Shown piece after piece: positions 5,413 through 29,919 of a stretch of 33,261 nt of DNA (the stretch's first letter is position 1; every line of letters starts with the position of its first letter). The notes under the pieces are model-generated. The model had not been told where the DNA came from and did not search any database. It was given only the letters and a program-made list of their open reading frames with translations. The position numbers and the translations under genes are program-made. Source of the stretch: a virus. The stretch lies in UHGV virus genome UHGV-0185745; one strand, written 5' to 3'.

Positions 5413-6603
5413 TTAATTGCTGTTAACCGAGGTGACCAGATTTGCCAGGTATTTATCGGTGATACGCTGGCGCAGGGTCAGGTTTTCGAGAGGAGGCGCC
5501 GGGGTATAGTCGTAGTCGATATACAGTTTTCCGGCCTTGAGGGTTTCCGCATCGTTGGATTCTTCGCTGAACCAGCATGTGCCATCCACGATATAACCGT
5601 TGCTTTTCAGTTCGCGGAATTTGGCATTGATGCCGTCAACGATGTCGCGAATCAGCGTTGCGGTGATGGGCTTGTCCACCGCCCACATGTGCGCCTCAGC
5701 CATCGTGTCGGCCAGCACCTGCGCGGTGCGGGTGTAGTTTTCAAAGAGGAACAGCGGGTCATCAGAGCAGGTACGGTTACCCCAGAAGCGGAAACCGTCA
5801 CGGCGAATCAGCGTTGTGACACCTGACTCGTTCAGCAGGTCAGCATCGGTGCCGGACTCCTGCAAATCCCAGAATACGGACGCACTGATGCCGGTAACAC
5901 CGTTTACCCCGACGTTGGACAGCGTTTTATGCCAGCCCTGCTCCTGGTCGATTCTGGCACGCAGACCCAGCGCACGGGCGGTGGCATACGCGGTGGCGGT
6001 GGTACTGGTGACCGTATCCCATGCGAGGAAATCCGGCCAGATGACCATCAGCTCACGCTGGCTGAAATTCTGGCGGTAGGCTTTCACCTCGGAAATGGTT
6101 TTACAGCCCCATGCGCTGATATACCCGAAAGCGCGCAGCTTCTGGCAGACTGATGCCAGTGCAACAGCCACCTCTTTGGTGTCCAGTCCCGGCACACCGA
6201 GAATACGCGGTTTAACACCGGTTACCGACTCTGCCGCCAGCAGGGCTTTCAGTCCGGTATACTGACCGTTTTCGTCAGTGGTGCCGATGATATTGGAAAC
6301 GGTCTGCGCGAGTTTCGTTTCTTCGTCGTCGCCGGTGCCGTCTTCCACACGCACGACAACGGTGACCGGTTTTGACTGGTCAGCGATGGCCTGCAGCGAC
6401 GCCGCCAGCGTGCCTTTTTTACCGGCCTTTGCAATTGCGCTCTGCACATTGGTAATCAGCACAGGTTTATTGAGGGGGAAGGTTTCCGCATCCGCATCGC
6501 TGGCCGTGCAGACCATGCCGACAATGGCAGTGGATACAGTGGAAATGACGCGGGTGCCGTCGTTAATCTCCAGCACCTGCACGCCGTGATGATAGTCACT
6601 CAT
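5413..6603 (-). CDS. FI: Contractile tail sheath protein FI, 396 aa
   Basis: 396-aa ORF preceding FII; P2-like length and position. Confidence 0.9.
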   Translation of the reverse strand: MSDYHHGVQVLEINDGTRVISTVSTAIVGMVCTASDADAETFPLNKPVLITNVQSAIAKAGKKGTLAASLQAIADQSKPVTVVVRVEDGTGDDEETKLAQTVSNIIGTTDENGQYTGLKALLAAESVTGVKPRILGVPGLDTKEVAVALASVCQKLRAFGYISAWGCKTISEVKAYRQNFSQRELMVIWPDFLAWDTVTSTTATAYATARALGLRARIDQEQGWHKTLSNVGVNGVTGISASVFWDLQESGTDADLLNESGVTTLIRRDGFRFWGNRTCSDDPLFLFENYTRTAQVLADTMAEAHMWAVDKPITATLIRDIVDGINAKFRELKSNGYIVDGTCWFSEESNDAETLKAGKLYIDYDYTPAPPLENLTLRQRITDKYLANLVTSVNSN

Positions 6604-6700: not shown

Positions 6701-6726
6701 AAGAAAAGGCGAGCAATCAGCCCGCC
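6701..6726 (-). terminator. Possible intrinsic terminator insulating the cargo island from the FI late operon
   Basis: Minus-strand GGCGGG-CUGAUU-GCUCGCC hairpin (one G-U) followed by UUUUCUUUAUCUGUUGUUU. Confidence 0.3.
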
Positions 6727-6945
6727 TGCCTTGATTTGTACTCTCTCAGTTTCCAACTGACAAATTACGTAACCAAAACTCTGTCAAATCTGACAGTCTG
6801 CTTTGAGCGAAAAACAGGTATTGAGATACATAATAAATCATCTCAATTTTCAACTTTTCTGCCACTTAACATCTTGAGTAGTAAATAGTACAAAACTATC
6901 TACTGCCGAAGGGCTCTAGGAAGTATGGTTTCTGCACAATAAGAC

Positions 6946-7089
6946 TTATATCGGCTCACGGGGAGCCAAAAGATATTCATTGCCTAGAATTTGCAGATGA
7001 GGTGGTAATCTGTACTGGGGCGGTACTGCAACAGCTATGTATATTTCCACTGCGGTAATCTGTACCAGCAGGTAGAAGCTGTTATACAT
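6946..7089 (-). CDS. Candidate small ORF, 47 aa, hydrophobic N-terminus (MYNSFYLLVQITAVEIYIAVAVPPQY...)
   Basis: ATG 7089..7087 preceded by AGGGGCGGUG; not in the ORF track (<60 aa); overlaps an inverted repeat that could sequester its RBS. A 12-bp direct repeat falls in two different frames inside it, which argues against coding. Confidence 0.25.
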   Translation of the reverse strand: MYNSFYLLVQITAVEIYIAVAVPPQYRLPPHLQILGNEYLLAPREPI

Positions 7090-7125
7090 CACCGCCCCTG
7101 TAGTGCTAATCCGGAGATAGCACTA
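7017..7125. repeat. Structured non-coding element: 8-bp inverted repeat GGGGCGGT(7017-7024)/ACCGCCCC(7091-7098), 12-bp direct repeat GGTAATCTGTAC (7004-7015, 7054-7065), and 8-bp stem hairpin TAGTGCTA/TAGCACTA (7101-7108/7118-7125)
   Basis: Read directly from the sequence; located 50-170 nt downstream of the TOPRIM-like gene stop. Confidence 0.5.
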
Positions 7126-7177
7126 CTCTCATCAAGGCTTGTTCTTCCATAAACCGCAATAGGTGTTAGTTTTAGCC

Positions 7178-8035
7178 TTAATGTAAAATTAACAATTGAT
7201 TCAGACGCTTATGTAATTTTGTGGTTCTAAATGTATGATGATCGTAACTCATACGCATATAACTATCTATCTCATCCAGACGCATGTTCTTATTTACAGA
7301 TATATCAGTTTCATACATCATTTTTAATATACATGTAAAGTCATGACCATTGCATATAGAAAAATGATCTGGCGACATTAATTCTAATTTACGCATTTCA
7401 TTATATAAATTTTTCGCATTAAAATCCTTATCAGTACGACTCCTGCTAAGCACATGATTTATATATTTGGTTTCATCAACTACAACATCTGTCCTGTTAA
7501 TACTTACAAAATTCCTGTAATTCATTCCTTTGAAATTAAGATTGCTATGTGTAAGATAATTGTACCATTTGAGAAGTCCGATTTTATAGCATGCACAAAG
7601 GATGTTCATCTTTACATCCTGACAGAATATATCGGCCAATTCCCCTTGAATTAATTTTCTATCTGTATGTGACATAATGAATTTATCAACCGCACCACCT
7701 TTTACTAACATCATTTCAAGGTCATGAGCATCAGTATAAAAAATCCCCTCGTGATTTATTCCGCTTAACTCATCAAAGTCCGCGTCACATACACCATACA
7801 CAGCATTATTACCTGCACGACGTAATTGACTAACAGCCAATATTACTTCACGTTTTCCATTTTCAGGTGATTCATAAATGATTCTATTATCAAGCCGATA
7901 TGCATTGAAAAATCGGATATCTGAAATGCCCTCAACCACAATCAATATACAACGTTGATACATTTCATTTCTGAATAAAAGCATCATACTACTCAACCAA
8001 TCATCTTCGCGAACAGCATTGCGTAATGACATCAT
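7178..8035 (-). CDS. TOPRIM-like (OLD-family/DUF4435-like) putative nuclease, 285 aa; AriB-like partner of upstream ATPase
   Basis: Conserved Glu in ILIVVEGISD (E35) and DxD in YGVCDADFDE (D84, D86) about 50 aa later, the TOPRIM pattern; ATG abuts the stop of the ATPase gene (TAAATG); AT-rich. Confidence 0.6.
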   Translation of the reverse strand: MMSLRNAVREDDWLSSMMLLFRNEMYQRCILIVVEGISDIRFFNAYRLDNRIIYESPENGKREVILAVSQLRRAGNNAVYGVCDADFDELSGINHEGIFYTDAHDLEMMLVKGGAVDKFIMSHTDRKLIQGELADIFCQDVKMNILCACYKIGLLKWYNYLTHSNLNFKGMNYRNFVSINRTDVVVDETKYINHVLSRSRTDKDFNAKNLYNEMRKLELMSPDHFSICNGHDFTCILKMMYETDISVNKNMRLDEIDSYMRMSYDHHTFRTTKLHKRLNQLLILH

Positions 8036-9280
8036 TTACTCGTTTCCTTCTGAAAGCTGTTGGCTTTCATTTCTATTTCTAATCATTTCATATAGATCGT
8101 ATGTTAATTCCCAATTCTTACTAATTACTTGTGGTGAATGAGTAGCAATAATGACCTTTTCATACTTGTTAATCTTTTGTATTTTTTTGAGAGAATCCAA
8201 GAAAGTTTGTTGCCAGGCGACATGTAATGATATTTCTGGCTCGTCTATAAGAATTACTTTTTGTGAAACAAAATCGAAAATCAAATTAAAAAGAAGAACT
8301 ATTTGGTTCTGTTCACCTGATGAAAGCAAATTACGATCAATAACATCGCCATTGTGACTTTTGAAATAAAATCCGTTATCTCTATCAATCATCACTTTTT
8401 TAAAAGCTAAAACCTTTTCTTTCAAAATTGATTCAAATAAATCAATTTTTTGATGTAATGTCTGAAACGGTGACAATTTTCCAAGGGCATCTTCAATATA
8501 TAGATCCAACACACTTAGATATTCATTGCTACTATAAAAACTTGTGCTTTTTTGAGGCATTAGCTCGTTATCAGCCTGAATAAGGCCATAACGCATATAA
8601 TGTCGACGTTTATCTTGAATACCATTTAAGCGATCTTGAATATTTTCTGATGAAAATCGTTTTGATTGCTCTAAACGCTCAAATAATCGAATAGGAAATG
8701 TAGCGTCTAATTTTTGTGATAATGCAGCGGAATCATCTTGTGCATTTTTCATTAAATATTTTAATTTTCTAGCACATAAGTCAATGACTGTTTCATCAAC
8801 AGCTTTGACTTGTAATCGATCTGCACATATAAAAGATACGTCTTCTTTCGATGTAATATGACTTAACACATCCGAAGATAATGGTTTATCAGTTCGTAAT
8901 TTTTGTTTTGGTTTAACATCCCCCCTATGCAAGCTTACATAAAATAACTCTTCCATAATAGATTCATCTGTCTGTAACTTGAGTCTTTCTTCCGTTCTGT
9001 TTCCTGAGCTATTATCCAGATGATTCAATATTAAACCATCTTTATTGGTGTCATGAGTAATTGAAACAGAGCCACCTTGAAAATCAATTTTAATAAAATC
9101 AAAATTAAGTTTACAGAGAGCATTTAATTCATTTGTAAGAATACTATTGATGATTTTAAGAATCATTGTCTTACCATATCCATTTGGACCAGTAAGCATA
9201 GTAATTTCATTGTTATCCAAGGGAATTTCATAATCAAGGAGACCAAATAGTTTTTTTACTTTTAAATGTATCAATTTCAT
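8036..9280 (-). CDS. ABC-type ATPase (SMC/RecF/OLD-like; AAA_15/AAA_21-type), 414 aa; AriA-like
   Basis: Walker A GPNGYGKT (9167..9190), ABC signature LSSGEQ (aa 319-324), Walker B VILIDEPE (aa 342-349), H-loop IIATHSP; good RBS GAGG 6 nt upstream of ATG 9280. Confidence 0.7.
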   Translation of the reverse strand: MKLIHLKVKKLFGLLDYEIPLDNNEITMLTGPNGYGKTMILKIINSILTNELNALCKLNFDFIKIDFQGGSVSITHDTNKDGLILNHLDNSSGNRTEERLKLQTDESIMEELFYVSLHRGDVKPKQKLRTDKPLSSDVLSHITSKEDVSFICADRLQVKAVDETVIDLCARKLKYLMKNAQDDSAALSQKLDATFPIRLFERLEQSKRFSSENIQDRLNGIQDKRRHYMRYGLIQADNELMPQKSTSFYSSNEYLSVLDLYIEDALGKLSPFQTLHQKIDLFESILKEKVLAFKKVMIDRDNGFYFKSHNGDVIDRNLLSSGEQNQIVLLFNLIFDFVSQKVILIDEPEISLHVAWQQTFLDSLKKIQKINKYEKVIIATHSPQVISKNWELTYDLYEMIRNRNESQQLSEGNE

Positions 9281-9300
9281 ATCAACCTCGCAGACGATGA

Positions 9301-9306
9301 ATTATA
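9301..9306 (-). promoter_or_regulatory. Candidate -10 hexamer (TATAAT) for the ATPase/TOPRIM operon
   Basis: Perfect TATAAT on minus strand 20 nt upstream of the ATPase ATG; -35 is weak. Confidence 0.35.
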
Positions 9307-9772
9307 ACCATTTATTACATGGCGCATATGAAATGCAATATATCATTGTCATGAGTTGCATTTCAAACATATGCCCCAACATCAATGCTAAATCCGTGAT
9401 TAAAATTAATAAACTCCTGGTTTTTGCAAATAATTTCTTGCCCTAATAGTTTGGAAATACCTCTTTTAAATTTATAGTGAATAATATTACGCCCATTTAG
9501 TTCTCTCTTTGCAGAACTGAACATGTCGGGAGCTACTGTGTGGAGAAACACTGAAACGATCGTTAGTGAATATTTGCACACTGGTGATAGTACTAAACAG
9601 CCCTTTGGTCATGTCCGAAAAATAGTGACTCGTACAACATGATCGATGTGATAGCATTTATGACAGTGAAACATAACAATCACCTTTGAACATTTTCCAT
9701 ACGTGCATTATACCTATTAAATCTAAACAAAACAAATAGATATAAAATATTCATCCGCGTATCTTCATGCTC

Positions 9773-9975
9773 TCATATACCACATACGGGAGCCTTAACA
9801 TCAAGTACTAAGCACGTCGTGAAGCTGTTTCCGTTAAGACGACTTTGCACTACTTGACTGATTAGCCATGCCTGCTTGTCTATCACACATTTAAAGTTTT
9901 TCATCGCTAACGTAGTTAGTCCATTCCCTTGAATGGCGTTTTACCAGTCTATATATGACAAATATCGTACTTTTT
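9773..9975 (-). pseudogene. Decayed 3' fragment of a gpD-like tail gene (last ~40 codons intact as a 43-codon ORF 9773..9904; upstream part frameshifted/stop-interrupted)
   Basis: Minus-strand translation MKNFKCVIDKQAWLISQVVQSRLNGNSFTTCLVLDVKAPVCGI aligns without gaps to the gpD C-terminus in this window (GFKRVIDEQDWTITKVTHFLNNSGFTTSLELEVRLSDV...); DNA also matches (ACGTCGTGAAGC, CTGCT(T/C)GTCTAT, TTAAAG); upstream codons read TGKTPFKG vs gpD TETPVKVSGF in a shifted frame. Confidence 0.55.
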
Positions 9976-10310
9976 CCACATTCAGTCCAATTCATTCACC
10001 GCTCCCGATTCACCTACAACACCCTCTCAACGACGTTCTCTGTACCTGTAATACCGGCGCAAATTGCGTCGAAAATGTCGTTCTGCATCGCATAAACCTT
10101 CATCAGATTTGGCCTACAATGCAGCGAATAGTCTGAAATTAAAAACCGATGATGATGGACTGTACTGTTCATGCAAGTCTGGTCGCTCTGTGCCTCATCA
10201 AGGAATGAATAATGATCTTGGCGACGTCTACTCTTGGCACAGAGCGGACTGTCAGATTAGTTTTTACTCTGTTCCATAGATGAGTAATCTCACACCAGAT
10301 CTAATACAAT

Positions 10311-10889
10311 TTATTGCGGCATTTCCGGCCATTCTATATCCGGAGCATCTTCCGGCTGAACGCGATTCAGTAACACACGGTATTTTTTCCAGTGTGTCAG
10401 GCTTAACTTTTCTTCCTCGGTAGCCATATCTAAATCGACAGCATCCTGCAGCGTGGCAATGATTTCACCTGCATATGCAATCTGCTCTTTCTTCTGAGAC
10501 TCCGCCGCTCTGACAAGCGCATCACGCTCTGCATTCTCATCATTCACCCACGCATTTCCGTTCCATTTCTGATAATCCCCCTCCGGGGAAATGGCTGTCA
10601 CGTCTGGAGGTAATGCGCCAAGTTCAGAAATATAAATGGCTGCTCCCGTTTTCGTTTCGTAGACAGTCTTTCCGCGATGATCTTCCATCAACTCCCATTT
10701 CATTTCATCTGCATTGAAAACGGCAGCAAAACCCGCCGGAATATCAGGTGGTGCAATATCTGTACTGTTTGCAGGCAGGCCAGTATACGGCGGAATATAT
10801 GCATCACTTTCGCCAATAAACTCATTGGTTCCATCAAGTAAATTGAAAACGCGGATAGTTTGTGCTTCTGCACTCATTCTGAAAGCCAT
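10311..10889 (-). CDS. G: Tail fiber assembly protein G, 192 aa
   Basis: Immediately downstream of H with 1-nt stop/start overlap; tail-fiber chaperone position. Confidence 0.82.
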
Positions 10890-22373: not shown

Positions 22374-24146
22374 ATGACCATCACCACAGACACCACTCTT
22401 TTACACGACCCGCGTCGTCAGGCGGCGCTGCTGTACTGGCAGGGGTTTTCCGTGCCGCAGATTGCCGCCATGTTGCAGATGAAACGCCCGACGGTGCAGA
22501 GCTGGAAACAGCGCGACGGCTGGGACAGCGTTGCTCCCATCAGCCGTGTCGAAATGAGTCTGGAAGCGCGGCTGACCCAGCTCATCATAAAACCGCAGAA
22601 AACCGGCGGTGACTTCAAGGAAATTGACCTGCTCGGACGCCAGATTGAACGACTGGCACGGGTAAACCGCTACAACCAGACCGGCAACGAGGCAGACCTT
22701 AATCCGAACATCGCTAACCGCAACAAAGGCGGGCGGCGCAAACCGAAAAAGAATTTTTTCAGTGACGAGGCCATCGAAAAGCTGGAGCAGATTTTCTTTG
22801 AGCAGTCTTTCGACTATCAGTTGCACTGGTATCGCGCCGGGCTTGAGCACCGCATCCGCGATATCCTGAAATCCCGCCAGATTGGCGCGACGTTTTATTT
22901 TTCCCGCGAGGCGCTGCTGCGCGCCCTGAAAACCGGCCATAACCAGATTTTTCTGTCGGCCAGTAAAACGCAGGCGTATGTATTCCGTGAATACATCATC
23001 GCCTTTGCCCGTCTGGTTGACGTTGACCTGACCGGTGACCCGATTGTCCTGGGCAATAACGGCGCAAAACTGATTTTTCTCGGCACCAACTCCAACACCG
23101 CACAGAGCCATAACGGCGACCTGTACGTCGATGAGATTTTCTGGATCCCGAATTTTCAGGTACTGCGTAAGGTGGCATCAGGTATGGCCTCACAGAGTCA
23201 CCTGCGCTCGACCTATTTCTCCACCCCGTCCACGCTGGCGCACGACGCCTACCCGTTCTGGTCGGGTGAACTGTTCAACCGGGGACGCGCCAGCGCCGCC
23301 GAACGCGTGGAAATCGACGTCAGTCATAACGCCCTTGCCAGAGGTCTTCTCTGTGCGGACGGCCAGTGGCGGCAGATTGTCACCATTGAGGACGCCCTGA
23401 AAGGTGGCTGCACACTGTTCGACATTGAGCAGCTCAAACGTGAAAACAGCGCCGACGATTTTAAAAACCTGTTCATGTGTGAATTTGTTGACGACAAGGC
23501 GTCGGTGTTCCCGTTCGAGGAGCTGCAACGCTGCATGGTCGACACACTGGAAGAATGGGAAGACTACGCACCGTTTGCCGCCAATCCGTTCGGCTCCCGT
23601 CCGGTATGGATTGGTTACGACCCGTCACACCGTGGCGACAGTGCCGGATGCGTGGTGCTGGCACCGCCGGTGGTGGCCGGTGGCAAATTCAGAATACTTG
23701 AGCGTCACCAGTGGAAAGGCATGGACTTTGCCACCCAGGCGGAATCCATCCGCAAACTCACCGAAAAATATAACGTTGAATACATCGGGATTGATGCCAC
23801 CGGCCTCGGTGTCGGTGTGTTCCAGCTCGTGCGCTCGTTCTATCCCGCCGCGCGCGATATCCGCTACACGCCGGAAATGAAAACCGCAATGGTGCTCAAG
23901 GCAAAAGACGTTATCCGCCGTGGCTGTCTGGAATATGACGTCAGCGCCACCGACATCACCAGCTCGTTTATGGCTATCCGCAAGACCATGACCAGCAGCG
24001 GACGCAGCGCCACCTATGAGGCCAGCCGCAGCGAGGAAGCCAGCCACGCCGACCTCGCCTGGGCGACCATGCACGCCCTGTTAAATGAGCCACTCACCGC
24101 CGGTATCAGCACCCCGCTGACATCCACCATTCTGGAGTTTTACTGA
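22374..24146 (+). CDS. P: Terminase large (ATPase) subunit P, 590 aa
   Basis: ATG 22374 with GAGG 5 nt upstream (the track ORF starts at an upstream TTG); 590 aa as in P2; stop overlaps the Q start (ATGA). Confidence 0.9.
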   Translation: MTITTDTTLLHDPRRQAALLYWQGFSVPQIAAMLQMKRPTVQSWKQRDGWDSVAPISRVEMSLEARLTQLIIKPQKTGGDFKEIDLLGRQIERLARVNRYNQTGNEADLNPNIANRNKGGRRKPKKNFFSDEAIEKLEQIFFEQSFDYQLHWYRAGLEHRIRDILKSRQIGATFYFSREALLRALKTGHNQIFLSASKTQAYVFREYIIAFARLVDVDLTGDPIVLGNNGAKLIFLGTNSNTAQSHNGDLYVDEIFWIPNFQVLRKVASGMASQSHLRSTYFSTPSTLAHDAYPFWSGELFNRGRASAAERVEIDVSHNALARGLLCADGQWRQIVTIEDALKGGCTLFDIEQLKRENSADDFKNLFMCEFVDDKASVFPFEELQRCMVDTLEEWEDYAPFAANPFGSRPVWIGYDPSHRGDSAGCVVLAPPVVAGGKFRILERHQWKGMDFATQAESIRKLTEKYNVEYIGIDATGLGVGVFQLVRSFYPAARDIRYTPEMKTAMVLKAKDVIRRGCLEYDVSATDITSSFMAIRKTMTSSGRSATYEASRSEEASHADLAWATMHALLNEPLTAGISTPLTSTILEFY

Positions 24147-25180
24147 TGAGCAAGAAAAAAGGGAAAACACCGCGACCTGCGGCAAAAAAAATGACTGCCA
24201 GCGCCCCGAAAATGGAGGCATTCACCTTTGGTGAGCCGGTACCGGTACTCGACCGCCGTGACATTCTGGATTACGTCGAATGCATCAGTAACGGCAGATG
24301 GTATGAGCCACCGGTCAGCTTTACCGGTCTGGCAAAAAGCCTGCGTGCCGCCGTGCATCACAGCTCGCCGATTTACGTCAAACGCAATATTCTGGCCTCG
24401 ACATTTATCCCGCATCCGTGGCTTTCACAACAGGATTTCAGCCGCTTTGTGCTGGATTTTCTGGTGTTCGGTAATGCGTTTCTGGAAAAGCGTTACAGCA
24501 CCACCGGTAAGGTCATCAGGCTGGAAACCTCACCGGCAAAATATACCCGCCGTGGCGTGGAAGAGGATGTTTACTGGTGGGTGCCGTCCTTCAACGAGCC
24601 GACAGCCTTCGCGCCCGGCTCCGTGTTTCACCTGCTGGAGCCGGATATTAATCAGGAGTTGTACGGCCTGCCGGAATATCTCAGCGCCCTTAACTCTGCC
24701 TGGCTGAATGAGTCGGCCACGCTGTTCCGCCGCAAGTATTACGAAAATGGCGCACATGCCGGATACATCATGTACGTCACCGATGCCGTGCAGGATCGCA
24801 ACGATATCGAAATGCTTCGCGAAAACATGGTGAAGTCGAAAGGCCGCAATAACTTTAAAAATCTGTTTCTCTATGCCCCACAGGGGAAAGCCGACGGTAT
24901 TAAAATTATCCCCCTCAGTGAAGTGGCAACGAAGGACGATTTTTTTAATATCAAAAAAGCCAGCGCCGCTGACCTGCTGGACGCGCACCGCATCCCCTTT
25001 CAGTTGATGGGCGGCAAGCCGGAGAACGTCGGATCGCTGGGTGATATTGAGAAAGTGGCAAAGGTCTTTGTCCGCAATGAGCTTATCCCGTTACAGGACA
25101 GGATTCGGGAAATAAACGGCTGGCTCGGTCAGGAGGTCATCCGCTTTAAAAACTACTCACTGGACACTGACAACGGCTGA
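24146..25180 (+). CDS. Q: Portal protein Q, 344 aa
   Basis: P2 synteny P-Q-cos and length. Confidence 0.9.
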   Translation: MSKKKGKTPRPAAKKMTASAPKMEAFTFGEPVPVLDRRDILDYVECISNGRWYEPPVSFTGLAKSLRAAVHHSSPIYVKRNILASTFIPHPWLSQQDFSRFVLDFLVFGNAFLEKRYSTTGKVIRLETSPAKYTRRGVEEDVYWWVPSFNEPTAFAPGSVFHLLEPDINQELYGLPEYLSALNSAWLNESATLFRRKYYENGAHAGYIMYVTDAVQDRNDIEMLRENMVKSKGRNNFKNLFLYAPQGKADGIKIIPLSEVATKDDFFNIKKASAADLLDAHRIPFQLMGGKPENVGSLGDIEKVAKVFVRNELIPLQDRIREINGWLGQEVIRFKNYSLDTDNG

Positions 25181-25762: not shown

Positions 25763-27244
25763 ATGGAAATCAAAGAATTTGTCAGCCAGTACAAAAACCA
25801 CCCAGTTCTTTTTATAGGCACAGGTTTTAGTCTAAGATATCTGCAAAACTCATTCAGTTGGGATGGGTTATTGATGAAAATTGCCGTTGATTTAACTGGC
25901 AACCCTGAATTTTATTATGATCTTAAATCGGAAAGTATTGAAGGTGACGAATACAGATACGACATTCTTGCAACAAAATTAGAGAATATCTTCAATAAGA
26001 AACTCGCCGAAGACAGAAACGGAAAGTTTGAAAGCATCAATGATATTTTCTACGAGAACATGAGTCATGGAAAAAAACTTAGCCGATTCAAAATATACCT
26101 AACATCAATATTAAAAGACTCACCTCTCAAAGAAGATTTAAGAGATGAAATTAACAGCTTAATAAAAACAAGAAAGAATATTGGCTCAATTATTACTACC
26201 AATTACGATCAACTTATCGAAAATTTATTCGATTTCTCTCCGCTTATTGGCAACAATATATTGCTAAGCAATCCATATGGCTCGGTATATAAAATACACG
26301 GTTGTGTTAGTGACCCCAATAACATAATCATAACATCTGATGATTATAATAACTTTAATGACAAATATGAGTTAATACGTGCTCAACTATTATCTATATT
26401 CATTCACAACCCCATTATTTTTTTAGGATATAGCATCAGCGACAAGAATATTAAATACCTCCTGCAGACAATATTTTCATATGTAGATCTAAATACTGAA
26501 CTAGCAAAAAAAATAAAAGACAACTTTCTCCTTGTTGAATATGATGAGGGGAACATGTCTACAACTATTTCTGAACATGATATTAACATTGAAGGTTTAT
26601 CCATTATAAGAATTAACAAAATCAAAACAGACAATTACAAAGCCGTTTACGATGCCATATCTAATTTAATTCTCCCTGTTTCCGCAATGGATATAAGAAA
26701 AGTACAAAAAGTCTGGAATACAATAAAAAGTGGCGGTGAAATCAAGGTAAAAATCACGGAAAACCTCGATGAATTACGGAATGAAGAAATGGTAATCGCT
26801 GTAGGCTCAGAAAGAACTGTTACCTACGAATACCAGACAAAATCTGAAATGATTCAAAATTACTTTAAAATTGTCGATGAAGCTAACGCACAACTCATTG
26901 CACTTTTGAATAAACAAACTATCACAAATCATGAGCACTTTCCAATTTACGCATTTAGTTCTGTATGCCCTGAATTAGAAAACGTTCAGCTATACAAAGA
27001 CAGACAATTGGATAAGATAATAAATCAACTCACTAGAATTAAAGCGTGCAAATGTGATGCAACAACAATAGATGAGATATTAGAAACAACAAAAGAATAT
27101 AAAGTAGCCAATACAATCATGTATTGTGTACTTAATGACACAATTTCCTTAGCACAACTCAGAAAATATCTTATCTCTATATCACACAAAATAGATACTC
27201 ATTACCGTAAATTATTGTGCCTGTATGATTTTCTATCATACTAA
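25763..27244 (+). CDS. SIR2-like domain protein (putative NAD+-hydrolysing defence effector), 493 aa; C-terminal ~250 aa of unknown function
   Basis: N-terminal Rossmann-type VLFIGTGFS (aa 15-23), IITTNYDQLIE (N147, D149), KIHGC (H179), FLGYSISD (aa 220-227): the pattern I associate with SIR2_2-type domains of ThsA/DSR proteins; strongly AT-rich; sits at the P2 tin/old slot. Confidence 0.5.
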   Translation: MEIKEFVSQYKNHPVLFIGTGFSLRYLQNSFSWDGLLMKIAVDLTGNPEFYYDLKSESIEGDEYRYDILATKLENIFNKKLAEDRNGKFESINDIFYENMSHGKKLSRFKIYLTSILKDSPLKEDLRDEINSLIKTRKNIGSIITTNYDQLIENLFDFSPLIGNNILLSNPYGSVYKIHGCVSDPNNIIITSDDYNNFNDKYELIRAQLLSIFIHNPIIFLGYSISDKNIKYLLQTIFSYVDLNTELAKKIKDNFLLVEYDEGNMSTTISEHDINIEGLSIIRINKIKTDNYKAVYDAISNLILPVSAMDIRKVQKVWNTIKSGGEIKVKITENLDELRNEEMVIAVGSERTVTYEYQTKSEMIQNYFKIVDEANAQLIALLNKQTITNHEHFPIYAFSSVCPELENVQLYKDRQLDKIINQLTRIKACKCDATTIDEILETTKEYKVANTIMYCVLNDTISLAQLRKYLISISHKIDTHYRKLLCLYDFLSY

Positions 27245-27356: not shown

Positions 27357-29654
27357 TCAGTAATGTTCACTACTGAACGCCATAAAGTTGGAGAATCCCG
27401 GCCACTCATCAGCGACCGGATACGTGAATTTTTTCCCGTCATAATTTACGGTCGCGCCACACGCCAGCGCCTCAAGCTCCCATCGCTGCGGCCTGATACC
27501 GTTCTGAGCAAGGTCAACGCGGATACGGGTGATTTGCAATCGTTCAGACCGGGTCAGTCTGGCCGATGGTGCAATTTCATGCGGTTTTAACGGGCTTCCG
27601 TTTCTTTGCTGACGATTTGGCGTTCTCAGCCCGTGTTTTAATGCGCCCCTGAGCGCCTTCACGACCTCCGGCTCATTCCATTCGATAACACCGTCATCAA
27701 CCAGATTAAGCACTGCTGCGGCGTGCTCAGAGGGTGTGGGAGCCGGTAACGAAGTATCACCACCGGTGACCTTTCCACAGTTATTGACAGGACTCCGAGG
27801 CGCGGCGATGCCGCTTTTTAAAGTCAAAGGCTCCACGACCGGAACTTTCGGAACAATGCGCCAGTCCGTCGTTCTGGTGATATGAATATGACGCGCGCCG
27901 AGATGCGGCGCGTAAATGCCGACCACTCTCTCGACTTCTTCCTCGTACTCGTTAACTTCATCCGACGGGCTACGGGCGACTCTGACAGTCTGGCAATTGC
28001 GCGGAACATTTGCCCCACCCTGCGCACTGATATACAACGCAAAATCGCCACTGTCTGCGGCGGCGCGTGCAGCCTCGACGCGCTCGTCAAACTCATCAGC
28101 AATGCTGACGCCGCGAGGCAATTTACGTAGTTCACGGTAAGCCCCCATTGTCGGCAGGCCAACCGTTTTAAATTGCGGGATGCGCCACGTTGACGCCCAT
28201 GCGGTAACAGCCGCCGCTGTGTCTTTCAGCGGCCTGCCGGTATCGTTATCGAGCTGACCATCCAGTGCATAGCCGTCGATGTTTTTTGAAATGTATTTCG
28301 CGATATACCCCGCAGCACCGCCCCGGTTAAGGTGTTTTGCCTGAAAACGGTTTCGCGCGGCTCCTCTTTCGCCGCCATCCTCTTTGAGCGCATAGCGACG
28401 CATGATTTCGATAATCTGGTTACGCTGGCGCGGATTACAAAAAAGCATCATATGCCAGTGCGGCGTTCCGTCGTGGTGTGGCTCGACGACACGCAAACCG
28501 TAGACCTGTAAATCATTATCCTTGAATGCCGTGCGCATCAGGCTCCAGATATGGCAGAGATAACGCTGCGCATCCTTTGGATTAAATGCCTCATCGTTCC
28601 AGCCGTGATTTAGCTGGACGGTTTTACTTTCGCCTTTTCCGACCTGACGTGTCGGGTGATACTTTGACGGCGCGGTCAGCGTGATAAACATCCCCACATC
28701 ACCCTCTGCTGCGGCGTAACGCTCAATACCGGCAATGGTGTTCATCAGCTCCATCCGGCGAATTTCAGGATTAGAAATACTGCCCATCACCTTACTGATA
28801 AGGTCGATGCGCTCGCCGGTTTCCCTGTTTTCAAGGTCACACGATTTAAGAAATTCCAGATTTGCCTGGCGGCGCGCACGCACATCACGAATGGCGTGTT
28901 TACTGGCATAAGGAGAACGGTCTTTATTGACCTCCCCGACAGCTATCAGTAACGCTTCATGCCAGCGCATACGCTGGCCTTTAAGCTGATGAGTCCACCA
29001 CTCATCGTTAAACAGACGGGCAATGGCAGAATATGCCTGCCTCGTGGTCATCTGTCCTTTACGGTATTTTTTCCAGTAAAGCGGGGAAATATTGAAAGCA
29101 CGTGCAGCGCCAGCAACATGACCATACAGATGCGCCTGCGCCTCATCCGTAAACAGCGATTCTTTTTCGCCATGCGCATCCACCCAGGCATCGCAGAGTT
29201 CCTCATACATCATGAAAAGCTGCGATGAGATACGGGCGGCAAACTTTTTCAGCTCCTTGTCATTCATCCCCGGCAGACGCGCATAGTGGTCACGCTCAGC
29301 CAGAAACAGCATCGACGCTTCGGTGTTCATTTCATGGCGCTGATTCACACGCTCAATGCGCGGCCATAAACGACGCTGAAAAGTGGATGTGAGAAAATAA
29401 AACCCGTGCACCGGGCTTTTATTGCGCCGGATGTAGTCATAGCGTGAAGTAAACAGCGAGCGCAAAAAGTAAGGCAGGCGGTTAATCGTGGATAAAACAC
29501 CTTGCACCTGACGCATCTCGTCACGTGTAAGAGGTCTTTCGCGCCAGACAGCCTCGCGTGGCGCGTTCCATGCATAAGCACCGGTAAACGCCTTACCGGT
29601 GCCTGCGGCAAATGCTGACGGAGGGACAAAACGCCCGGAGGCTTTAACGGCCAT
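27357..29654 (-). CDS. A: Replication initiation protein A (rolling-circle HUH nickase), ~765 aa
   Basis: HUH-like motif PHWHMML and tyrosine pair AGYIAKYISK; ATG at 29654 (MAVKASG...); the track ORF starts at an upstream TTG (29696). Confidence 0.9.
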   Translation of the reverse strand: MAVKASGRFVPPSAFAAGTGKAFTGAYAWNAPREAVWRERPLTRDEMRQVQGVLSTINRLPYFLRSLFTSRYDYIRRNKSPVHGFYFLTSTFQRRLWPRIERVNQRHEMNTEASMLFLAERDHYARLPGMNDKELKKFAARISSQLFMMYEELCDAWVDAHGEKESLFTDEAQAHLYGHVAGAARAFNISPLYWKKYRKGQMTTRQAYSAIARLFNDEWWTHQLKGQRMRWHEALLIAVGEVNKDRSPYASKHAIRDVRARRQANLEFLKSCDLENRETGERIDLISKVMGSISNPEIRRMELMNTIAGIERYAAAEGDVGMFITLTAPSKYHPTRQVGKGESKTVQLNHGWNDEAFNPKDAQRYLCHIWSLMRTAFKDNDLQVYGLRVVEPHHDGTPHWHMMLFCNPRQRNQIIEIMRRYALKEDGGERGAARNRFQAKHLNRGGAAGYIAKYISKNIDGYALDGQLDNDTGRPLKDTAAAVTAWASTWRIPQFKTVGLPTMGAYRELRKLPRGVSIADEFDERVEAARAAADSGDFALYISAQGGANVPRNCQTVRVARSPSDEVNEYEEEVERVVGIYAPHLGARHIHITRTTDWRIVPKVPVVEPLTLKSGIAAPRSPVNNCGKVTGGDTSLPAPTPSEHAAAVLNLVDDGVIEWNEPEVVKALRGALKHGLRTPNRQQRNGSPLKPHEIAPSARLTRSERLQITRIRVDLAQNGIRPQRWELEALACGATVNYDGKKFTYPVADEWPGFSNFMAFSSEHY

Positions 29655-29919
29655 ATGAGCCAAAAGCCTCTGAACAACGCTTGCTGAGTTGCTCAACCTG
29701 CGCGTTTAAATCAGCAAAAGATTTTGCGCTTCCGGTCAGAATATCGTGATGCATCAGGCCGGAAACGAGCTGGCTTAATTTCGGGTAATAACCAACCACC
29801 GCCAGCCATTCCTGACCGGCGTTTTTACCGCTTTCCGCTCTCTTTTTCTCGTGGAGAATAAACTGAAAGCTGTCACTGGTAACGACATAACGTTCGCCAA
29901 TTTCAATACGAATACTCAT
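29644..29919 (-). CDS. Hypothetical early protein, 91 aa
   Basis: ORF in the early operon between B and A; ATG start; overlaps A start. Confidence 0.5.
   Translation of the reverse strand: MSIRIEIGERYVVTSDSFQFILHEKKRAESGKNAGQEWLAVVGYYPKLSQLVSGLMHHDILTGSAKSFADLNAQVEQLSKRCSEAFGSYGR

Follow-up and report, generated by a model that had tools for sequence, protein, structure and literature searches.

A divergent PARIS-type gene pair as probable defence cargo in the Z/fun slot of an Escherichia coli P2-like prophage

In this study, we analysed a stretch of 33,261 nucleotides (virus genome UHGV-0185745, here called the window) and found it to be an entire P2-like prophage of E. coli. The identical sequence occurs in a RefSeq genome, where the prophage is integrated beside pflB and its genes follow the order ogrK, gene D, tail, lysis and head genes, and replication gene. 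Two genes (Table 1) lie between the tail-fibre assembly gene G (10889..10311), with H likewise upstream of the pair, and the sheath gene FI (6603..5413) downstream of it, which is the site where P2 carries Z/fun. The GC content drops to 0.29–0.35 across 7001–9500, compared to about 0.55 in the phage backbone. An AT-rich pair at the Z/fun site of P2, with a 414-aa reading frame whose TAA stop abuts the ATG of a 285-aa frame, had been described in the original prediction, and both the placement and the TAAATG junction could be read directly (gagTAAATGatg). The abutting stop and start codons suggest translational coupling. Purine-rich ribosome-binding sequences precede both starts, with GAAGGA upstream of the ariB-like ATG and GAGG (9289-9286) upstream of the ariA-like ATG. 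The candidate promoter is the best-scoring site in the region, a consensus match only, with 10 of 12 matching positions and an extended -10 TG, while the region overall displays fewer promoter-like sites than shuffled sequence. A terminator-like hairpin with an 8-bp stem (6 GC pairs), followed by TTTCTTTATC, lies downstream of ariB in conserved P2 backbone, and the end of the operon transcript could possibly be located here. Just downstream of ariB, two further elements were spotted by eye, both of marginal significance: a perfect 9-bp hairpin (GTAGTGCTA...TAGCACTAC; 7100-7126, minus strand) without a T-run, and two copies of GTACAGATTACC placed 50 nt apart (7054-7065 and 7004-7015, minus strand), the latter in a stretch common to Morganella and absent from Klebsiella.

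Table 1. Positions of the genes and sequence elements in and around the Z/fun-slot island (window coordinates).
Feature	Position	Strand	Description
Terminator-like hairpin and T-run	6707..6727	(-)	Pattern scan, consensus match only
Right-hand inverted-repeat arm	6787..6811		Repeat I1; 84% complementary to 10234-10258
Foreign island in Z/fun slot	6818..10223		About 3.4 kb; P2-EC67 Z-region homology ends at 6817 and 10224
ariB-like gene	7178..8035	(-)	285-aa DUF4435/TOPRIM nuclease; predicted effector
TAAATG junction	8033..8038	(-)	ariA stop abuts ariB start; read directly
ariA-like gene	8036..9280	(-)	414-aa ABC/SMC-type ATPase; predicted sensor and sequestering subunit
Candidate sigma-70 promoter for the operon	9337..9366	(-)	TTGAAA and TG-TATATT with an 18-nt spacer; about 57 nt ahead of the ariA start codon
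Non-coding relic	10004..10264	(-)	Resembles a tail-X region fragment of another phage; by homology
Left-hand inverted-repeat arm	10234..10258		Repeat I1; within 'left inverted repeat' annotated in AJ512685

The island is foreign to the phage backbone, and P2-like phage records match its flanks only. The cargo lies between two inverted-repeat arms of 25 nt each. The P2-EC67 Z-region record (AJ512685) annotates a 'right inverted repeat' that contains the right-hand arm, and the core of its 'left inverted repeat' is matched without a mismatch by the first 20 bases of the left-hand arm. From 10264 down to 6784 the window is homologous (77–84%) to a single Morganella block, with 10003-9622 as the part that does not align, and in this block the module is preceded by a DNA invertase together with tail-X and lysozyme reading frames in truncated form. 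The 20 bases of the left arm recur with 2 of 20 mismatches at the start of the block, and a weaker copy with 5 of 20 mismatches is located near its end, which hints that cassettes may be exchanged at the inverted repeats. From the homology to the Morganella block it follows that part of the unannotated spacer of about 1 kb upstream of ariA is relic DNA. The relic, which RefSeq leaves unannotated as part of the spacer 9281-10310, shares 77% identity with Morganella L012 4793-5070, a segment that runs into a truncated tail-X-like reading frame. About 120 bp of the relic (approximately 10004-10126) match, at about 80% identity, the junction of the L and X genes in other E. coli P2-like prophages. 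Judged by these homologies, the relic seems to have arrived together with the cassette. A scan of the island against Rfam returned noise only, and neither a retron reverse transcriptase nor a retron non-coding RNA was found near the pair.

The 414-aa protein displays Walker A at G31-PNGYGKT38 (with K37), the signature at L319-SSGEQ324, the Walker B and catalytic residues D346-E347 and the H-loop at H381, so that the full ABC ATPase motif set listed in the original prediction is present, as is the long insert it had noted, with about 280 residues between Walker A and signature. None of these motifs varies in 24 homologs, the most distant of which share 36% identity. Among Pfam models, AAA_15 scores 73 bits (cut-off 32.1) and AAA_21 62.4 bits (cut-off 27), and among PADLOC models AriA (PDLC04164) matches at 1.9e-25, with the PtuA models close by at 1.5e-24 and further matches to the AbiLi (weak, 4e-12), GajA and ATPase-Toprim models. 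Since ATPase HMMs alone do not discriminate AriA from PtuA, folds were compared. A profile built from the 24 homologs and searched against the PDB found AriA of the PARIS cryo-EM structure as best match (5.4e-23, both halves aligned) and PtuA next (1.4e-12). AriA was also first in the fold search, at 18% identity to AriA of the B185 system, and the nucleotide-binding site is intact, with K37 corresponding to K39 of B185 AriA, a residue that the B185 system requires.

Residues 61-150 of the ATPase, located between Walker A lobe and helical region, are hypervariable in sequence and length, with an entropy of 2.2–2.8 bits compared to 0.25–0.5 at the motifs, and the segment aligned to residues 100-135 ranges from 16 to 59 residues in the homologs. 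The position of the B185 pore loop (R116, R119) falls within this part, whose variability follows the pattern that would be expected of a diversifying sensor surface. The idea that the disordered loop at residues 107-127 forms a basic pore loop comparable to B185 R116/R119 and conserved among the homologs was examined and rejected, since in the homologs the net charge ranges from -5 to +2 and the length from 16 to 59 residues, so that we claim hypervariability alone.

In the 285-aa protein, the TOPRIM-type glutamate and DxD reported in the original prediction were found as E35-G36 and D84-A-D86, both invariant in 18 homologs; E35, D39, D84, D86 and E107 are invariant in the nuclease family. 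The protein scores 89 bits against DUF4435 (cut-off 27), confirming the profile similarity on which the TOPRIM assignment depended, and its sole PADLOC family is AriB (PDLC02983, 2.6e-21). The predicted structure is confident (pLDDT 90.9), and its Foldseek search against the PDB gave two significant matches only, both of them AriB chains (8e-8 and 2e-7; TM about 0.55; 12% identity). With 231 residues aligned, compared to stretches of about 125–140 residues with OLD nucleases, the modelled protein shares the full-length fold of AriB, so that it is predicted to have the whole two-domain AriB architecture, which comprises the TOPRIM domain and the remainder of DUF4435, the part that mediates dimerisation. 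B185 AriB holds a two-metal acidic site consisting of E26, D30, D88, E90 and E122 (PMC11464382), and its E26A and E90A mutations each abolish defence (PMC11464382, PMC10802264). We aligned the B185 and O42 AriB sequences, taken from Rousset Table S2, with the nuclease family by MAFFT (ten sequences in total), a residue mapping at about 15% identity that is supported by the fold match and not by alignment statistics. In this alignment E35, G36, D39, D84 and E107 are invariant in all ten sequences, and the B185 residues E26, G27, D30, D88, E90 and E122 are placed at E35, G36, D39, D84, D86 and E107, respectively. By alignment and model, the nuclease thus has a predicted complete two-metal acidic site.

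Sequence searches gave no direct link between the nuclease and a validated AriB, neither by phmmer nor with the 18-sequence family profile against the PDB, and BLASTP found no significant pairwise similarity to O42 AriB. In hhalign, the family was aligned to B185 AriB in a wrong register (probability 1.3%) and to O42 AriB at a probability of 1.6%, which is not significant, although the TOPRIM core (VEG, GK, DxD) fell into the correct register. Membership in AriB therefore rests on Pfam and PADLOC HMMs together with the predicted folds. The two validated AriBs of B185 and O42 are only distant homologs of each other (PMC9122126), and sequence similarity to a validated AriB can consequently not be considered a strict requirement of the family.

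The published detection rule for PARIS asks for adjacent genes with at least 32 bits for AAA_15 or at least 27 bits for AAA_21, together with at least 27 bits for DUF4435 (Rousset et al., PMC9122126). The pair is recognised by this original MacSyFinder rule, with abutting genes and the bit scores given above, as well as by the PADLOC models of both AriA and AriB. Every testable feature that defines PARIS was found here, except for direct sequence similarity to a validated AriB. The location agrees with this reading, since Z/fun is, next to old/tin, a described defence-cargo hotspot (Rousset 2022, PMC9122126; bioRxiv 10.1101/2024.10.15.618418). We therefore consider it likely, as the original prediction of a PARIS-like module had it, that the cargo of the Z/fun slot belongs to the PARIS family (AriA/AriB) and operates by a broadly PARIS-like mechanism.

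Other defence systems that combine an ABC ATPase with a TOPRIM protein (OLD-, Gabija-, AbiL- or Septu/retron-PtuA-like) could resemble PARIS superficially while acting on DNA. The ABC ATPase is common to all of them, which is reflected in the close scores of PtuA and AriA and in the additional AbiLi, GajA and ATPase-Toprim matches of the 414-aa protein, and the TOPRIM nucleases of OLD and GajA indeed cut DNA (PMC11464382). However, the decision falls with the partner protein, which in PADLOC matches AriB and no AbiLii-, PtuB/HNH- or GajB-type partner, and with the folds, where the PARIS subunits rank far above PtuA, GajA and OLD in both searches and the full-length AriB fold is aligned over more residues than the OLD stretch. 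Labels taken from these systems were rejected one after another on the same grounds. A Gabija assignment is countered by the missing GajB helicase and a Septu assignment by the missing PtuB HNH nuclease, since the island contains neither a helicase nor an HNH gene and the partner is a DUF4435 TOPRIM protein in both cases. The 'AbiL-type' label of the original prediction had to be dropped, given the weak AbiLi match of the 414-aa protein and the lack of any PADLOC match to an AbiLii-type partner. Its description as 'split OLD-like' holds as far as the shared domains are concerned, since class 1/2 OLD nucleases (P2 Old, Thermus scotoductus OLD 6P74, Burkholderia OLD 6NK8) likewise combine an ABC ATPase with a TOPRIM domain. 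P2 Old has a role in phage exclusion. An OLD label would however need a single polypeptide, whereas two reading frames separated by a stop are present here, and OLD ranks far below the PARIS subunits. Altogether, a DNA-acting system of this kind is a very unlikely explanation of the pair.

Within PARIS, the closest solved relatives are AriA for the ATPase and AriB for the DUF4435/TOPRIM protein, both from the B185 system ('PARIS-2', PDB 8UX9, 8V45-8V49), which is encoded by a P4 satellite in the P4 psu-int hotspot, in contrast to the P2 Z/fun slot occupied here. Identity to B185 amounts to 18% for AriA and 12% for AriB, the latter without a link in sequence searches, and both proteins are shorter in the window, with 414 compared to 464 aa for AriA (PDB chain length) and 285 compared to 307 aa for AriB. 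Somewhat smaller proteins had been taken in the original prediction as a possible sign of a distinct subtype; the size difference stands, but the gap is small and the architecture is the same, so that a divergent lineage describes the pair better. Residues R28 and R31 of B185 AriB, which bind AriA, are not conserved and correspond to I37 and I40, and consequently the AriA–AriB interface must have co-evolved differently here. In addition, the hypervariable ATPase insert is unrelated to that of B185 AriA. PARIS-1 of E. coli O42 (Rousset et al. 2022) displays the same AAA_15/AAA_21 plus DUF4435 architecture, and since no significant similarity to O42 was obtained either in the pairwise comparison or in hhalign, the pair can be regarded as a third lineage, separate from B185 and O42. 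NCBIfam holds no specific family for either protein, and PHROGs places them in the 'unknown function' families 7507 and 20954 only. RefSeq accessions and sequences of the lineage were absent from the papers searched and from the Rousset supplements, the supplements being covered in part, so that absence from the latter is weak evidence that the lineage had not been named or tested earlier.

The order of ATPase and DUF4435 gene and the tight junction are kept in five further genera in differing genomic settings, down to 33–40% identity. The orthologous pairs are 84% (Morganella), 76% (Klebsiella), 37–38% (Kosakonia), 37% (Yersinia phage) and 33–34% (Haemophilus) identical to the pair described here, with genes that abut in Morganella, overlap by 4 nt in Klebsiella, by 1 nt in the Yersinia phage and by 11 nt in Haemophilus, and are separated by a 2-nt gap in Kosakonia. 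Klebsiella shares only these two reading frames and not the flanks, so that the module can be considered to consist of just the two genes. In Klebsiella P2-like prophages, the same lineage occupies the other classical hotspot, with the portal gene and replication gene A as its neighbours (L008 5757-7861), and the assembly collection lists it in over 2,600 index blocks. The Yersinia phage vB_YenM_31.17 (Peduoviridae) carries the pair between immunity repressor and integrase (L015 3230-5379), where its record labels the genes 'ATPase' and 'hypothetical protein'. Taken together, the finds at Z/fun, between gpA and portal and between repressor and integrase place one PARIS lineage in three variable slots of the P2 family, in addition to plain chromosomal sites.

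[quoted passage not shown] On the other hand, deletion of either PARIS gene is non-toxic and abolishes defence, and both tested PARIS systems protect against phages (Rousset et al., PMC9122126). The slot typically carries defence cargo (bioRxiv 10.1101/2024.10.15.618418), and the ATPase motifs for trigger-dependent release, which would be superfluous for a simple antitoxin, are invariant. We regard addiction as the main function as very unlikely. It is highly improbable that the pair consists of horizontally acquired DNA that is decaying and no longer functional: the island does hold obvious relic DNA and about 1 kb of unannotated spacer and is found, in identical form, in just 13 of 5,426 complete E. 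coli genomes (including O25b:H4-ST131 strains), but both reading frames are intact and 99.9–100% identical across these 13 genomes, dN/dS relative to Morganella (dS unsaturated) amounts to 0.25 (ariA) and 0.19 (ariB), all catalytic motifs are invariant, the structure models are confident, and a promoter-like site as well as ribosome-binding sites accompany the genes.

No internal stops were found in the orthologs, and both genes are intact, tightly coupled and under purifying selection. The presence of the island in 13 E. coli genomes, where the genes are annotated as 'AAA family ATPase' and 'DUF4435 domain-containing protein' only, and the conservation of the pair across genera show that it is not a chance pattern.

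For the PARIS reading, we propose a model by analogy with the B185 system (PMC11464382, PMC10802264, PMC12409363), in which the ATPase would oligomerise and keep the nuclease sequestered and inactive. In PARIS, an AriA hexamer sequesters AriB in an A6B3 complex, and phage proteins such as Ocr or Ptr1/2 act as activators, leading to growth arrest and tRNA cleavage. Binding of a protein from an infecting phage to the ATPase would lead to an ATP-dependent rearrangement that frees the nuclease, which could then dimerise and cut RNA, most likely specific tRNAs, in the anticodon stem. Translation would consequently stop and the infection abort, protecting the population of lysogens and the prophage itself from competing phages. 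Phage trigger and RNA target may differ from Ocr/Ptr and tRNA-Lys/Thr/Asn. In a more tentative extension of this model, which we consider possible though doubtful, the pair would form a compact, functionally distinct PARIS branch, in which the insert at residues 61-150 senses a class of proteins other than Ocr/Ptr, AriB cuts RNAs other than tRNA-Lys/Thr/Asn, and the cassette moves as a unit among the three P2-family slots, possibly by recombination at the Z/fun inverted repeats.

The pair most likely represents a deeply divergent PARIS lineage, and both the system type and the P2 hotspots have been described before; it therefore adds no new principle and would not surprise a specialist. Its value lies in serving as a point of comparison with B185 for the variation of trigger and RNA target within PARIS. 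Relatives are very common in assemblies of Klebsiella pneumoniae, the exact island is present in some clinical E. coli ST131 strains, and PARIS-type cargo can alter the response of these pathogens to therapeutic phages.

It should be added that a second AT-rich island (25763-27244, plus strand) occupies the other classical P2 hotspot of the prophage, with replication gene A (27357-29696) on one side and the portal gene (24146-25180) on the other. Its product, a SIR2-family protein of 493 aa, matches the PADLOC candidate system PDC-S25 (6.4e-157) and also ThsA-type SIR2 models (7e-20). With this SIR2 candidate defence gene occupying the other hotspot, both slots of the prophage carry defence-type cargo.
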